Source of the DNA: an uncultured Pseudomonadales bacterium
GTDB lineage: Bacteria; Patescibacteriota; Microgenomatia; UBA1400; PJMF01
DNA: 64,000 nt
Direction of reading: 5' to 3'
NCBI GenBank assembly: GCA_964633875.1
Contig: CAZWKL010000001.1
Location: forward strand, 117,530-181,529
Part shown: positions 16,724 through 49,934 of the stretch, one piece after another
How positions within the stretch are numbered: the stretch's first letter is position 1
How the letters are laid out: every line of letters begins with the position of its first letter
Translations under genes and position numbers: made by a program
The notes under the pieces: model-generated
What the model was told of the DNA's origin: nothing
Databases searched by the model: none
Seen by the model: only the letters and a program-made list of their open reading frames with translations

Positions 16724-18181
16724 CTAATCCAGCCTGGGAAATAAAGGCTTCAGGGGCTCGATTTCTTCAGCCTGAAAATGAGTAATAATTTGTTCGGCGG
16801 TGTCGGGCATCAAGGGCTGCAGTTTTCCGGCGATCAGCAATAGGTCTGAGATGGCTTGTTCCAGGATGGGTTGGGCAGCGGTTGCTTCAAGTTTCCAGGG
16901 TTGGGCTTCTGCCAAGTATTTGTCTAACTCGGCCACGCTTTTGGTTTTGCCGCCCGTTTGAGTGATCAGCGTTTGCAGCGCCTCGCCCAAGTTGTAGCTG
17001 GCCATCAACTTTTGATATTCATCAGGGCTAGCTAGGGGATTTTCAGTGCTTGGTGCTGTTGGCCGGTGGGCATAATTGGTTTTTTGGCTGATAGCTGCCA
17101 ATCGGGAACAAAGGTTGCCTAAACCATTGGCTAAGTCCGCTGTATAAACTGTGTCCAGCTTTTCCCAAGTAACGTCCATATCTTCGCCAAAGGGTCCAAG
17201 ATTGATGAGTAAGTACCTGGCGCCATCAACCCCGTAGCGCTCCACCATCTCGGTGGGAGTGATAACGTTGCCGAGCGACTTGCTCATTTTTTGGCCACCG
17301 ACATTAATAAAGCCGTTGATTAAAATTTTGGCTGAAGTGGGCAATCCGGCCGACATCAGCATGGCTTGCCACATGGCCGATTGCTGCCTGAGGTTGTCTT
17401 TGCCGGCAACTTGAACTCCCGGCCAATATTTTTGGTAATTGGCTTGATCTTCCGGCCAGCCCAAAGTAGAAACATAATTCACCAAAGCGTCAAACCAAAC
17501 ATACATCACGTGTTGGTCGTCGCCAGGCACAGGAATGCCCCAGGGCATTTTTTCTTTAAGGCGGGAAATGCTGAAGTCTTCCAGGCCTTGCTCAACAAAA
17601 CTAGTAATTTCCGCCAACTTTCCCCTTGGTACCATGAAAGCCTCGGTGTTTTCATAAAGATTTTGTAACTCATCCTGATATTTAGAAAAGCGGAAAAAGT
17701 AGTTTTCTTCCTCACGGGTTTCCAGCACTTTATTTGGATGTAGCGGGCATTTACCATTTTCCAGCTCAGAAGCCTGTTTTTCCAGCTCGCAACCAACACA
17801 GTACATGACCTTATACATGCGCTTATAAATATCTCCATTGGCTTCGCACCGGCGCCAAAACTCTTGGGCTGCTTTTTTGTGCTTGGGATCGGTGGTGCGG
17901 ATAAAATGCGTGTAACTCAAGTTCAGCAATTTTTTTAAATTTTCAAAGTGAGCAGCGTACTCGTCTGCATAAGCTTGAGGTTCTTTGTTTTCCTCCAAAG
18001 CTTTTTCGTAAATTTTCTGCCCATGCTCATCGGTGCCGGTATTGAAAACTACTTCCCGGCCCAGAGCACGCTGATGCCTGGCAATGACATCGGCAGCCAC
18101 AATTTCCAGCGCAAAGCCGATATGAGGCGAAGCATTCACATACGGCAAAGTAGTGGTGATATAAAAATAAGGCTCAATCAT
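16724..18181 (-). CDS. metG: Methionyl-tRNA synthetase (short form, no C-terminal tRNA-binding extension)
   Basis: PHIGF (HIGH-type) and KMSKS motifs. Zinc knuckle CVGC...C. 485 aa. Confidence 0.9.
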   Translation of the reverse strand: MIEPYFYITTTLPYVNASPHIGFALEIVAADVIARHQRALGREVVFNTGTDEHGQKIYEKALEENKEPQAYADEYAAHFENLKKLLNLSYTHFIRTTDPKHKKAAQEFWRRCEANGDIYKRMYKVMYCVGCELEKQASELENGKCPLHPNKVLETREEENYFFRFSKYQDELQNLYENTEAFMVPRGKLAEITSFVEQGLEDFSISRLKEKMPWGIPVPGDDQHVMYVWFDALVNYVSTLGWPEDQANYQKYWPGVQVAGKDNLRQQSAMWQAMLMSAGLPTSAKILINGFINVGGQKMSKSLGNVITPTEMVERYGVDGARYLLINLGPFGEDMDVTWEKLDTVYTADLANGLGNLCSRLAAISQKTNYAHRPTAPSTENPLASPDEYQKLMASYNLGEALQTLITQTGGKTKSVAELDKYLAEAQPWKLEATAAQPILEQAISDLLLIAGKLQPLMPDTAEQIITHFQAEEIEPLKPLFPRLD

Positions 18182-38274: not shown

Positions 38275-38829
38275 ATGACATTCAACTTTAATGAATTTAC
38301 AGATAAGGCAGAAAAAACTCTCGTCCATGTCAGGCAGGACCTTGGCACTTTGAGAACCGGCAGAGCCACAGCCCAGTTGCTTGATCCGGTCACAGTTGAA
38401 GCCTATGGCACCAGCATGAAAATAGGTGAGGTGGCCACCGTTCAAGCTCCTGATTCAACACTGTTGGTTGTTAGTCCTTGGGATAAATCCTTGATGGAAA
38501 ACATTGAAAAAGGCATCGCCAAAGCTGGCTTGAATCTCAATCCGGTCGTCAGTGGCGATGTGATCAGGATCGCGGTACCACCGCTCACAGAGGAAAAACG
38601 CCGGGAAATGGTCAAGCTGCTGCAAAAGAAAATTGAAGCTGGCAGAGTGATGCTTAGAAACATTAGAGCCGCCACCAAGCAAGACATTGAAGATCAAAAA
38701 GGAGCAGAGGGAGTGAGTGAAGACGATATTAAGCGTGATTTGCAAGATCTTGATAAAAAGTTGCAAAATTATATAGACCAACTCGATCAGCTCGAGTCTT
38801 CCAAAGAGCAAGAACTAATGACCGTCTAG
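38275..38829 (+). CDS. frr: Ribosome recycling factor
   Basis: 184 aa. Conserved RRF sequence (LRTGRA...VVSPWDKS...LNLNP...IRIAVPPLTEE-R). Confidence 0.9.
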   Translation: MTFNFNEFTDKAEKTLVHVRQDLGTLRTGRATAQLLDPVTVEAYGTSMKIGEVATVQAPDSTLLVVSPWDKSLMENIEKGIAKAGLNLNPVVSGDVIRIAVPPLTEEKRREMVKLLQKKIEAGRVMLRNIRAATKQDIEDQKGAEGVSEDDIKRDLQDLDKKLQNYIDQLDQLESSKEQELMTV

Positions 38830-46263: not shown

Positions 46264-47961
46264 ATGAAGACTTGGAACTTACTCCACCAAGACACTCCCC
46301 AAACCATTGATGAAGTGATTAAAATTTTGCTCAAGAACCGGGGTATTGAAAATATTGATTCGTTTTTGAACGTCAAACACCCCGCGGATTTAACTTTGGC
46401 AGAAGTGGGCATCAACCAGCAGCAGATGAAAAAGGCTGTTAAAAGAATTATCAAAGCCCAAAAAACCGGCGAAAAAGTGCTGATTTTTGGCGATTATGAC
46501 GCTGATGGCATTTGTGCCACTGCTATTCTTTGGCTGACTCTTCACCACCTAAAAATCAATGCTTGGCCCTTTATTCCTCACCGTGGCAAGCATGGCTACG
46601 GTGTTTCTGATGCAGCCCTGGATGGAATTTTAAGCGAAAAAGAAAAACCGGCATTGATTATTACCGTAGACAATGGCATTGTTGCCCACAAATCTCTGGC
46701 CAGGTTGTTGGAGCAAGAAAAAATTGATGTCATTGTCACCGACCACCATCAACCGGAAACTGATAATGACAAGCCCGTATTTCCGCCCGCCACGGCCGTA
46801 GTCCATACTACTCAACTTTGCGGCGCAACGGTATCATGGCTGCTCTCAAGAGAACTTGATAAAGACTTGGCTATGGAACAGTTGGATTTGGCTGGTATTG
46901 CCACTATTGCCGACCAGGTTTCGCTAATTGGCGCTAACAGAAGTTTTGCCAAATTTGGTTTGGAGGCTTTAGCCAAGACAGAGAAAATAGGCTTGAATCA
47001 ACTCTTCCAGGCGGCGACAATCGAGAAAAAAAATATTTCCAGCGGCACGGTTGGTTTTAGTCTGGTGCCCAGAATTAATGCCATGGGTAGGCTTAAACAT
47101 GGTCTGGATGCTCTCAGACTTTTGTGTACCAACAGTCACAGTCAAGCCACCAACTTAGTCAAAATTTTAATGGAGACCAACATTGAGCGCCAAGACCTCA
47201 CCAACGAGCTGCTGGCAGACGCGATTTTGCAGGCAGAAAAACAAGCCAAGGAGCACCTCATTATTGTTTCTTCCCCCAACTATCATGAAGGAGTGATCGG
47301 CTTGATTGCCGGCCGGCTAATGGAAAAATATCACAAACCCGCCATCGCTTTGAGCCTTGATCACAACACCGCCAAAGCTTCCGCCAGAAGCGTTCCGGGC
47401 GTCAATATCACTGAACTGCTCCGGCAAGTTCAAGCCGATTTAATTGATGTCGGTGGCCATCCTTTAGCCGCTGGCTTTAGTGTAGAAGTAAAAAAACTGC
47501 CTCAGGTTAAGCAAAAACTAGCAGAAATTGCTTTGGTGGAAATTCCCGCTGAACTACTCCAACCAACCCTTGACATCGAACTGGAATTACCCTGGGAGTT
47601 GGTGGGCGAGGAACTAGTTGCCGCCACCGAAAAACTGGCTCCTTTTGGTCAAGACAACCCCAGACCATTTTTTTTGCTCAGCCACCTCAAGATTCTCAAT
47701 GTCATGAGTATGGGTAAGGAAAATAATCATTTGAAAATGGTGGTGGGCCAGCCGGAGGCTGCCAATCCAGCTACCAGCACTAAAACCCTCAATATTTTAG
47801 CCTGGCGCAGGGGACATTTGGCAAAAGATCTTCAGGAAGGCCAAATAGTATCGTTGGTGGGATCGTTGGAACTCAATCACTGGAACGGCAAAACTAGCGT
47901 ACAGATGGTGTTGAAAGAGTTAGCGGTTAATCAACCTTTTCCACCAATTGACGGGAATTAA
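46264..47961 (+). CDS. recJ: Single-stranded-DNA-specific exonuclease RecJ
   Basis: DHH motifs (IFGDYDADGIC, VTDHHQP), DHHA1 region (GGHPLAAG) and a C-terminal OB region. The start was set at the internal ATG 46264 to avoid overlap with the divergent cca start. Confidence 0.85.
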   Translation: MKTWNLLHQDTPQTIDEVIKILLKNRGIENIDSFLNVKHPADLTLAEVGINQQQMKKAVKRIIKAQKTGEKVLIFGDYDADGICATAILWLTLHHLKINAWPFIPHRGKHGYGVSDAALDGILSEKEKPALIITVDNGIVAHKSLARLLEQEKIDVIVTDHHQPETDNDKPVFPPATAVVHTTQLCGATVSWLLSRELDKDLAMEQLDLAGIATIADQVSLIGANRSFAKFGLEALAKTEKIGLNQLFQAATIEKKNISSGTVGFSLVPRINAMGRLKHGLDALRLLCTNSHSQATNLVKILMETNIERQDLTNELLADAILQAEKQAKEHLIIVSSPNYHEGVIGLIAGRLMEKYHKPAIALSLDHNTAKASARSVPGVNITELLRQVQADLIDVGGHPLAAGFSVEVKKLPQVKQKLAEIALVEIPAELLQPTLDIELELPWELVGEELVAATEKLAPFGQDNPRPFFLLSHLKILNVMSMGKENNHLKMVVGQPEAANPATSTKTLNILAWRRGHLAKDLQEGQIVSLVGSLELNHWNGKTSVQMVLKELAVNQPFPPIDGN

Positions 47962-49459
47962 TCCCTGACTCCCTTTGACCCTTGGTAAAGAAATAATTTT
48001 GAAGCCTGAGTCTTTGAATTTCTAGTTGTTCTTCTATTGACCTGGAAGTTTCAACATCAGCCTGATTTATATTGAAGATGTCATAATGCTCAAACAATAT
48101 GCTTGCAACATCCCACATTCTCCTTTGTCCAAATAATGAGTGTGCAAGCCCAGATTCAAAACCACCATCCACAGAATATTTATAATCCAAATAACGTTGA
48201 TAATTAAAGATTAAAATTTCAATTACTTTACCCTGATGTTTGCCTTCATGAAATCTTACTTTCATCCTTTTCCATTTAACTTCTGCGCTTTGTCCCCGTC
48301 CGTTCCCAACCTCATCATCTGGAGTAACTGAAACAACACCCTCTTTAAAACTTTGAAGAATTATGGTCTCAATTTCATTGTATAGCTCTAGCTGATCTTC
48401 CTCGCTAAAAGTTATAAATTTTATTCCAGCATAGTCTTCAATATCTTCTACTGCTATTCTGCTTTCGCTCCCTCTTTGTAAAGCTTTAGCAATCATTTTT
48501 GCCACAGTCGAGGTCGGCGTTTTCTCCCTAGGTTGGGTCGTGAACTTTTTTCCACAATTTGAAGTGCGGACTTGCATGGTTTCTTTTTTCCAATATCTAT
48601 CGCTAGGAGGTTGATCTATAGGTTCTTGACAAGTAAAAGACAGACATGTGTTCGTCTCATAGCTGTGCAATGAGTAAATATCTAAAGTATTCGTTTCACC
48701 AATCTTTTCCTCGGGGTCATAAAGATGCTTTTCAAATACTGCCTCCAAATCTTTTATTAGGCTTCTATATGAACCATTGCCCATTTTTTCTTCAATTTGT
48801 AATAAAAGTAAGACAATGCCTAGTTGTCGTTGCAATTCGTATTTAAATCTATTGCTAACATCATGGTTCCCAAGCAAGTATCTTCCAACTGCTAAAATTC
48901 CTCCTGCAGGGTACTCCGTTTGATTCAAAAGCCCAAGATTCTCCTCTTTTCCAGGATAAGCTGTATCGCGGATCTCATCAATGATCCTGTTCGCTGATTC
49001 CATAAGTCCCTCTAGGTGGTTGTTTAGAGCGGTATAGTCGCTCCCTGCTTGGTATTTCTTTAAGTGAGGAAAACACTGACAGAGAAAATTAAAAAAAGCT
49101 CTTTCCAGCTCAACTTTTTTAAGAATCTCTATACGTGAAGCCTCTCTCTCTGATCGTTGACTTTCTCTTTCCAATTTTTCCGGGTTTTCAGACAAATTTA
49201 TGTTGCCTTCGCTACCGTTTTGCGATCGTGTTTTTGCCCTAAGTTGCCAAGCTTTTAACTTGTGAGCTGCAGCTTGCTCTTTGGATGGCCATTCCTGAGA
49301 CAAATACAGTTTCATCAATTGATAAATTTTATCTTCATCAGCGAACATCGCGCGGATAAATTCTACAGCTGCCGGACCTAGCACGGAATCAAAAACCTCA
49401 ATTTTAGGCTTGAACGGCTCATGCGTGCTGGGGGGTTGTTCAATAGTCTTACTTAACAT
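47927..49459 (-). CDS. Hypothetical protein with C-terminal RelA/SpoT-like (small-alarmone-synthetase/toxSAS-like) nucleotidyltransferase signature
   Basis: The block REKTPTSTVAKMIAKALQRGSESRIAVEDIEDYAGIKFITF...VIEILIF...YLDYKY aligns by eye to the RelQ/RelA synth motifs (R-K-SPxS-IxxKxxRK, D-x-AG-I-R-h-h, EIQIRT, H/YxxYK). The N-terminal 330 aa are unknown. The gene is ~34% GC against ~47% in its neighbours. It is certain as a CDS; the function is tentative. Confidence 0.45.
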   Translation of the reverse strand: MLSKTIEQPPSTHEPFKPKIEVFDSVLGPAAVEFIRAMFADEDKIYQLMKLYLSQEWPSKEQAAAHKLKAWQLRAKTRSQNGSEGNINLSENPEKLERESQRSEREASRIEILKKVELERAFFNFLCQCFPHLKKYQAGSDYTALNNHLEGLMESANRIIDEIRDTAYPGKEENLGLLNQTEYPAGGILAVGRYLLGNHDVSNRFKYELQRQLGIVLLLLQIEEKMGNGSYRSLIKDLEAVFEKHLYDPEEKIGETNTLDIYSLHSYETNTCLSFTCQEPIDQPPSDRYWKKETMQVRTSNCGKKFTTQPREKTPTSTVAKMIAKALQRGSESRIAVEDIEDYAGIKFITFSEEDQLELYNEIETIILQSFKEGVVSVTPDDEVGNGRGQSAEVKWKRMKVRFHEGKHQGKVIEILIFNYQRYLDYKYSVDGGFESGLAHSLFGQRRMWDVASILFEHYDIFNINQADVETSRSIEEQLEIQRLRLQNYFFTKGQRESGINSRQLVEKVD

Positions 49460-49483
49460 TTCAGTTTATCGTGCAGCTAAGCA

Positions 49484-49513
49484 CTAAAAAAAGCCCTCCT
49501 GAGGGGCTTTTTT
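49484..49513. terminator. Bidirectional intrinsic terminator (A7-GC-rich hairpin-T6)
   Basis: The sequence aaaaaaagccctcctgaggggcttttttc forms a GC stem flanked by A-tract and T-tract. It lies between the start of the minus-strand 510-aa gene and the aspS leader. Confidence 0.6.
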
Positions 49514-49649
49514 CACAAAGGTACACCCCTCAGTTACCTAATACTAAGCGTAAAAATAACTCGAGAGAAATGCCTTAATTTGTGCATTTTTGATTAAATT
49601 CTACTTTTAATTACTATGTTTAGTCGTCGTCGGCAAGGCCATACGTTAT

Positions 49650-49899
49650 GTAAGCAAATTGTATCAAGATTTAGCTGATTGTCAACCAGGCTAAGATTAG
49701 TTAAAATAAAGTTATAATACAAAAGCTTTTTGTTTGGGTGACGCCAAACAGCCACTTGGCAAGCGCTCAGGGTCGCAACTGAGCCGGGTAAGCCCGTGAC
49801 AGCAGGAATGAAGGCAGCCTCCAGCTGTATTGAGAGGTGGCACCGCTTTTACTCGAAAGCCCTCTTAGAACCATCGCGGTGGTTTTAAGAGGGCTTTTT
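49650..49899 (+). promoter_or_regulatory. T-box riboswitch-like leader of aspS (T-box motif, antiterminator/terminator, GAC-A specifier candidate)
   Basis: T-box-like tgagaggtggcaccgc at 49831-49846 (consensus AGGGUGGNACCGCG). Downstream gcggtgg can pair with it as an antiterminator. Mutually exclusive perfect 11-bp terminator aagccctctta/taagagggctt plus T5 at 49857-49899. Candidate specifier GAC followed by A at 49798-49801. The 5' boundary is uncertain. Confidence 0.5.
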
Positions 49900-49934
49900 G
49901 GCTTTTAATTGATACTTAAACGAAGAAAGGAAAC

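Follow-up and report, generated by a model that had tools for sequence, protein, structure and literature searches.

The leader of the aspartyl-tRNA synthetase gene aspS, at 49722-49906 of the 64-kb stretch of DNA that was analysed (here called the window), is very probably a T-box riboswitch that senses tRNA-Asp and controls aspS by transcription attenuation. A tRNA-sensing T-box leader had been proposed for this gene in a first-pass annotation, and is borne out by the architecture of the element, by a covariance model built for this class of leaders (R1), by covariation, and by the gene context of related leaders. The remark made there that T-boxes are not the textbook expectation in this lineage also holds.

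The aspS gene is located on the plus strand from 49935 (ATG) to 51341 (stop) and encodes an aspartyl-tRNA synthetase (AspRS) of 468 aa. The gap 5' of the gene (49460-49934) is 475 nt long and non-coding, as had been noted, and it is divergent, because the neighbouring ORF (47927-49459) lies on the minus strand. The enzyme had been described as archaeal-type, which was not upheld. It scores 583 bits with the bacterial aspS model NF001750 (cut-off 443, matched in two stretches), and stays below the cut-offs of the archaeal/non-discriminating models NF003483 (226 vs 353) and TIGR00458 (194 vs 368). The Pfam matches are just PF01336 (OB anticodon-binding) and PF00152 (class II core); the GAD insertion domain is absent. 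Judged by these profiles, the protein is a bacterial-type AspRS without GAD insertion and not an archaeal-type one. The closest 80 aspS loci in a species-level genome collection are all from MAGs of the Candidate Phyla Radiation (CPR), with a top identity of 71%. Among the T-box-regulated CPR enzymes, the AspRS downstream of leader L110 has 611 aa; about 140 of these form a C-terminal extension, which the other enzymes, of about 470 aa, do not have.

Neither gatCAB nor asnS was found among the 24 annotated ORFs of the window. A tRNA-Asp gene was found neither in the window nor in the metagenome/MAG DNA searched, and genes for tRNA-Asp, tRNA-Ser and tRNA-Ile were sought beside the matching leaders and not found. 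The sole other aminoacyl-tRNA synthetase (aaRS) gene found in the window encodes a short MetRS (485 aa; 16724-18181, minus strand); it has no leader, and only 24 nt separate it from the preceding gene.

The same intergenic region may hold a second attenuator, predicted on the minus strand. A strong candidate promoter on the minus strand in the segment 49455-49690 (TTGACA at 49685, TG-TACAAT ending at 49658) has 11 of 12 consensus matches and would provide ORF 47927-49459, the 510-aa product of which has no NCBIfam or Pfam match, with a leader of about 190 nt. Within this leader there is a GC hairpin with U7 behind it (49512-49484), and CUGAGGGG upstream can pair with CCCCUCAG of the hairpin.

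A putative promoter for aspS (49679-49718, plus strand) consists of TTGTCA (49679-84), a 17-nt spacer and TAAAAT (49702-07), with 10 of 12 positions matching the consensus. A perfect TATAAT at 49713-49718, also on the plus strand, is an alternative -10 box. Transcription would start at about 49714-49725.

The Stem I domain (49725-49764, plus strand) is delimited by MFE folds, by the alignment to R1, and by a loop triplet which tracks the downstream aaRS gene in a set of 66 leaders. In the MFE fold it consists of a basal helix (49725-28 / 49761-64), a 7-bp Stem I (49731-37 / 49744-50) and an extra mini-hairpin of 3 bp (49751-53 / 49758-60). The terminal loop of Stem I, GUGACG (49738-43), carries the specifier GAC at 49740-49742, followed by the purine G49743. 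Stem I is thus short and platform-free, with the specifier shown by a hairpin, which is a feature of class II T-boxes. Basal helix, Stem I and mini-hairpin together form a three-way junction in the window; most relatives have a GA/GA K-turn there. R1 places the mini-hairpin inside the Stem I loop; the thermodynamic fold was preferred at this point because the R1 placement has a low posterior probability.

Stem II (49765-49784, plus strand) is supported by the fold, by R1 and by covariation. It is a 6-bp hairpin (49765-70 / 49779-84) with the loop GGUCGCAA, which corresponds to the GGUNNNAA loop of the family and is similar to the AGUAGAA strand that long-form relatives have in the S-turn of Stem II. 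The Ile leaders and the subfamily-B relatives have an explicit GAA / AGUAGAA S-turn; the window has the 6-bp hairpin only. Stem IIA, recovered by fold and R1, is the 4-bp hairpin CGGG-UAAG-CCCG (49785-88 / 49793-96), with the F-box CCGUGA (49794-49799; definition from PMC7583486) directly on its 3' side. The IIB pseudoknot, in which GC(A) at 49802-04 faces (A)GC at 49791-93, completes the IIA/B element (49785-49804, plus strand) and is weak in the window, with two Watson-Crick pairs plus A.A. Linker and Stem III follow on the plus strand (49805-49828; MFE helix 49799-49803 / 49824-49828, inner pairs 49805-07 / 49820-22). Stem III is an insert relative to R1 and is missing in many relatives; its lowest pairs compete with IIB in the window.

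The near-consensus T-box sequence noticed earlier, gagaggtggcaccgc, is present at 49832-49846. It belongs to the antiterminator, or discriminator (49830-49868, plus strand), composed of AGAGG, the UGGCACC bulge, GCUUU-loop-AAAGC and CCUCU. In the constrained fold, an 8-bp A1 helix (49830-37 / 49861-68) and a 6-bp A2 helix (49845-50 / 49855-60, loop 49851-54) enclose the 7-nt T-box bulge UGGCACC at 49838-49844, the UGGC of which would pair with the 3' GCCA of the tRNA. This fold has -12.6 kcal/mol, with UGGCACC held unpaired and the distal strand left out. The intrinsic terminator (49852-49906, plus strand) consists of a hairpin with the core G49859-C49894, a U-run (49895-99) and a further UUUU (49903-06). 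It contains the perfect 11-bp hairpin with U-tract that had been reported (aaagccctctt / aagagggcttt), which extends to a stem of 20 pairs at 49855-49898. When folded without constraint, 49826-49905 adopts the terminator at -36.7 kcal/mol; the z value for the terminator is -4.8. The 5' strand of the terminator (49852-74) includes the whole 3' strand of the antiterminator (49855-68). As this strand is shared, the two structures are mutually exclusive, which had been expected (-36.7 vs -12.6 kcal/mol). The terminator ends about 26 nt before the Shine-Dalgarno (SD) sequence AAGGA (49927-49931, plus strand), which is single-stranded in the terminator state.

The first-pass annotation had placed the specifier at a GAC followed by A (49798-49801) and had let gcggtgg pair with the T-box. 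Both sequences exist, and an Asp specifier was the right expectation, but GAC 49798-49800 is at the wrong site, within the F-box. Likewise gcggtgg is found at 49876-49882 and is complementary over 6 nt to CACCGC at 49841-46, but is not the partner strand of the antiterminator. A canonical Firmicutes-type class I T-box would need both assignments, with GAC-A in a long Stem I and an antiterminator formed by the T-box and gcggtgg. This reading, which draws on GAC-A and on the complementarity of CACCGC to GCGGUG (49876-81), is highly improbable. The F-box lies just 3' of the IIA hairpin, and the closest relatives (L001, L003, L041) have CCGUAA, CCAUGA or CCGUCA in its place. The triplet at 49798 is AAU, GAU or CAG in the closest relatives, and a set of 84 leaders shows it to be free to vary; as an Asp codon it is not conserved, and what these relatives keep is a 5' hairpin with GAC in its loop. 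The window does not have a long Stem I with the K-turn, the internal Specifier Loop, the AG bulge and the distal loop. Its Stem I has 7 bp and a loop of 6 nt, and the -10 boxes directly 5' of this hairpin leave no space for a long one. A match to the Rfam T-box model RF00230 is absent, and the fold with A1, 7-nt bulge and A2 takes 49855-68.

The window copy is a divergent member of its family, with a three-way junction in place of the K-turn, a reduced Stem II, a weak IIB and Stem III as an insert. Such divergence, together with zero RF00230 signal, could also be expected of a decayed or constitutive element, either the remnant of a T-box or a plain attenuator, that has lost its response to tRNA. 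Decay is nevertheless judged very improbable. Specifier loop, UGGC bulge, A1/A2 helices and shared strand are all intact and in register. L001 has the same GUGACG loop as the window on a different stem sequence. Moreover, a strong terminator without an antitermination route before an essential single-copy aaRS gene would be deleterious.

As a tRNA-Asp-responsive attenuator, the leader would work as follows. The nascent RNA would first fold the compact decoding module, in which the Stem I loop offers GAC to the GUC anticodon of tRNA-Asp, and which would be braced by the short Stem II hairpin and by the IIA/B pseudoknot carrying the F-box; no contact with the tRNA elbow would be made. The 3' GCCA of an uncharged tRNA would pair with UGGC (49838-41) in the bulge and stabilise the weak antiterminator, and the RNA polymerase would read through into aspS. 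With the tRNA charged or absent, the far more stable terminator would form on the shared strand, and transcription by the host polymerase would stop at the U-run, with about 35 nt left to the start codon.

The T-box core GGTGGNACCGC occurs twice in the window against 1.9 expected matches, which is not above chance alone. The second exact occurrence, GGTGGTACCGC at 38572-38582 on the minus strand, was rejected as a chance match; it lies inside a 184-aa ORF of the plus strand (38275-38829). Significance rests on the whole architecture, for which the independent model R1 was used. R1 was built from a MAFFT alignment of 18 compact leaders, with the window left out. It gives a single match in the 64 kb, at 49722-49846, over its full length, with 57.7 bits and E = 2e-11. 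Among the aspS loci R1 also finds L041, L003, L001 and L019, and it recovers 87 of 92 leaders from a metagenome scan, high-GC ileS leaders with an AUC loop among them.

In the first-pass annotation the lack of an RF00230 match had been named as a refutation of the T-box. At the gathering score (93 bits) RF00230 indeed has no match in the window, in 11 aspS loci or in 12 metagenome loci; at a permissive E <= 10 it finds nothing for the window leader (in 601 nt or 197 nt) nor for L001, L003 and L041. The refutation was rejected, since sister leaders, searched permissively, reach 62, 54, 36, 35, 30, 29 and 25 bits (E = 1e-11 to 0.05), all short of that gathering score. These sub-threshold scores, which include E values of 1e-9 to 1e-11, tie the class to the T-box family. 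The membership of the window leader itself rests on the discriminator anatomy, on R1, and on the RF00230 signal of the members of the R1 seed.

Related leaders were found in two ways. Just 5' of aspS, about 12 of the 80 CPR loci have GGUGGCACC together with the antiterminator/terminator geometry, and the same type of leader stands 5' of aspS in labelled Patescibacteria MAGs. Metagenome sequences were scanned with a pattern consisting of the IIA hairpin, F-box, GGAA and bulge, which put no constraint on the 5' hairpin or on the bulge N. The scan yielded 92 loci, several of which share contigs of 1.0-1.4 Mb. A downstream ORF was called for 80 loci, and in 71 of these it is an aaRS gene (SerRS 24, IleRS 19, AspRS 14, ValRS 10, TrpRS 3, ProRS 1), as counted by clustering plus NCBIfam annotation of the cluster representatives alone. 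The AspRS genes from the scan are 70-98% identical to those of the labelled Patescibacteria MAGs.

Of 70 leaders, 53 have a -10 box no more than 35 nt 5' of the model start, 32 of these boxes being of the extended TGn type, vs 17 of 70 in a control window. From this position it follows that the transcript starts at the short Stem I and that no long Stem I is hidden upstream. The geometry of A1, 7-nt bulge and A2 was recovered by direct search in 69 of 81 leaders vs 10% of shuffled controls. A generic constrained-fold test for antiterminators was dropped because partial terminators confounded it.

At least 58 of 71 low-GC leaders have a hairpin with a U-run behind it, which is mostly missing in the high-GC ileS leaders caught by the same pattern. 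The high-GC hits L094, L098 and L165 of the scan are without U-run. These hits, and the combination of ultrashort Stem I, Stem II and IIA/B known from translational ileS T-boxes (PMC7583486, PMC11297988), could be taken to mean that the window holds a translational T-box of the actinobacterial type, with the downstream hairpin acting as sequestrator of the ribosome-binding site and not as a terminator. This is very improbable. In the window UUUUU directly follows the hairpin, and most low-GC relatives likewise have a U-run after a hairpin; the hairpin ends well 5' of a free SD, and no SD sequestrator platform is present.

The leaders of the scan differ in their terminators. In short-type leaders (L129, L142, L161, L156, L103, L159, L109, L130, L172) the terminator base is GCACC:GGUGC, followed by a U-run, and the GCACC is the 3' part of the T-box bulge. 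The OFF state of these leaders, as modelled, would directly sequester the acceptor-binding bulge, unlike the canonical switching topology. Long-type terminators, that of the window included, have a conserved apical helix (..AUCAC..GUGGUG..), the 3' strand of which is complementary to CACCRY beside the bulge (in the window 49841-46 with 49876-81, within gcggtgg).

Other leaders depart further. A third type is seen 5' of aspS in L010, L015 and L013, with GGUGGCACC and a terminator and without IIA/B; a AGAUAGUGAGAA-like hairpin loop is followed by AGUAGAA-GU-GAC-A, and R1 does not detect it. It resembles an intermediate Stem I whose specifier loop is internal. At L064:2530-2790, about 340 nt 5' of aspS, there is a T-box with the bulge UGGU, after which comes a Cys-rich ORF of 51 aa. 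The loop of the 5' hairpin of this T-box is AAUC, which holds no Asp codon. Leaders of the type sought in the scan also precede genes outside the aaRS families. L107 stands before an archaeal-type PEP carboxylase (loop CACGACA, N = U). By eye, the downstream products were labelled as a HAD-like protein for L103, as a histidine-phosphatase-like protein for L159 (loop CU-UCA-AA, a Ser codon), and as small NUDIX-like ORFs for L085 and L127 (UCC, a Ser codon); L148 likewise stands before a non-aaRS gene. Some of these targets may be enzymes of serine or aspartate pathways.

The loop of the 5' hairpin typically has 7 nt, arranged N-N-codon-A-N, and its triplet tracks the downstream gene: GAC for AspRS, AUC for IleRS, AGC, UCC or AGU for SerRS, GUC for ValRS, CCC for ProRS and UGG for TrpRS. 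This was quantified by a blind rule, which takes the longest hairpin with a 6-7-nt loop located 16-85 nt before IIA and reads loop nucleotides 3-5. By this rule, 37 of 66 non-redundant leaders yield the cognate amino acid; with shuffled labels (1e5 trials) the mean was 12 and the maximum 24. Cross-assignment is nearly absent, GAC is decoded in Asp leaders alone, and the window is read as GAC. Three other procedures were set aside: the longest hairpin anywhere caught AT-rich promoter hairpins, counting any frame in any loop was noisy though significant (48 of 62 cognate vs a shuffle maximum of 41), and RNAfold on segments delimited by the covariance model over-extended stems into palindromic loops.

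The discriminator base of tRNA-Asp is G73. All 16 Asp leaders have C as bulge N, and pairing with this base would fit. The Val leaders uniformly have U, as does Pro, and Trp has C. Among L081-L172 the bulge N is mixed in the SerRS leaders (C 12, U 8) and in the IleRS leaders (U 9, C 8); the CPR tRNA-Ser genes searched include both G73 and A73.

In two CPR aspS leaders the specifier frame reads AAC (Asn). These are L019:2781-2905, with AU-AAC-A and the bulge UGGC, and L070:189-345, with AA-AAC-A and the bulge UGGU, where the operon consists of a 196-aa ORF and then aspS. A further candidate Asn leader, L149, was rejected as ambiguous, as it has two alternative hairpins. The two AAC loops suggest a gating of aspS by tRNA-Asn in some lineages; if true, this would imply a non-discriminating AspRS. 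Extended to the window, they would mean a leader that senses tRNA-Asn instead of tRNA-Asp, on account of a non-discriminating enzyme. The probability of such a leader is close to nil, the window loop being GU-GAC-G without AAC, and all Asp leaders of its subfamily having GAC.

Covariation supports the proposed structure. The seed alignment of the 18 leaders was made by MAFFT without regard to structure. In it 96.6% of cells are paired, vs 23-44% with slid partners, which backs the basal helix, Stem I and Stem II. Compensatory changes are found in 13 pairs. In each of the 11 pairs of Stems I and II both partners vary, and all six pairs of Stem II are compensatory. The invariance of IIA is due solely to the search pattern, in which this hairpin was fixed. 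Two positions free in the pattern, the IIA-loop nucleotide and the N of GC-N-GGAA, covary with a mutual information of 0.79 bit (0 of 10,000 permutations; A.A 45, A-U 15, U.U 10, G-C 7, C-G 4). This pattern of exchanges supports a short IIB pseudoknot helix.

Taken as a whole, the leaders point, with somewhat better than even probability, to a widespread minimal T-box class in Patescibacteria, which serves at least six aaRS families and joins an elbow-independent decoding module to an intrinsic terminator. T-box regulation would thereby be extended to the Candidate Phyla Radiation, for which no report of a T-box was found in the open-access literature. With the RF00230 gathering score at 93 bits, such leaders are unannotated in CPR genomes and invisible to Rfam-based annotation. 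The TBDB has a separate 'class II' model for T-boxes with a short Stem I, run on Actinobacteria alone (PMC7778990). Transcriptional T-boxes are said to need the platform of a long Stem I for fast capture of the tRNA, and a short Stem I has been associated with translational control (PMC7583486 sec. 6.2, PMC11297988). If the minimal class works as it appears to, it contradicts the view that this platform is a kinetic necessity in transcriptional T-boxes. Possible explanations are a slow or pausing polymerase, a higher tRNA affinity gained from Stem II and IIA/B, or others. The dozens of natural leaders with a Stem I of about 5-7 bp and a terminator with U-run make the kinetic argument directly testable. 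At about 180 nt with the terminator, and with a 7-nt specifier loop resembling an anticodon loop, they are among the smallest natural full T-boxes, and this size makes them attractive scaffolds for engineering.

The canonical RF00230 T-boxes, such as those of Bacillus subtilis tyrS and glyQS, share with the window leader the competition between antiterminator and terminator, the T-box with its 7-nt bulge, and a specifier codon that matches the regulated aaRS, here aspS under an Asp codon. Unlike them, the window leader has no long Stem I, no internal Specifier Loop, no AG bulge and no distal-loop platform. In Clostridium acetobutylicum, a T-box with an Asn specifier reportedly controls an operon of non-discriminating AspRS and GatCAB, as Saad et al. 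are said to have described in 2012. The CPR leaders L019 and L070 have in common with it the idea of an aspS gated by the status of tRNA-Asn. The clostridial T-box has a canonical long Stem I and is specific for Asn; the window leader carries GAC (Asp).

The nearest architecture is that of the actinobacterial ileS T-boxes with short or 'ultrashort' Stem I, known from Mycobacterium smegmatis, M. tuberculosis and Nocardia farcinica (Sherwood et al. 2015 via PMC7583486, PMC11297988, PMC12647780). Like the window leader, these have a short Stem I without elbow-docking platform, Stem II, the IIA/B pseudoknot, a CCGUCA-like F-box, a linker, Stem III and a discriminator with the UGGN bulge. The module of ultrashort Stem I, Stem II and IIA/B is so far known only from these translational leaders, in which an SD sequestrator controls ileS in Actinobacteria. 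Unlike them, the window leader carries an intrinsic terminator with U-run, leaves the SD free, stands before aspS, and belongs to Patescibacteria. Its Stem II amounts to no more than a hairpin of 6 bp, and a three-way junction takes the place of the K-turn.
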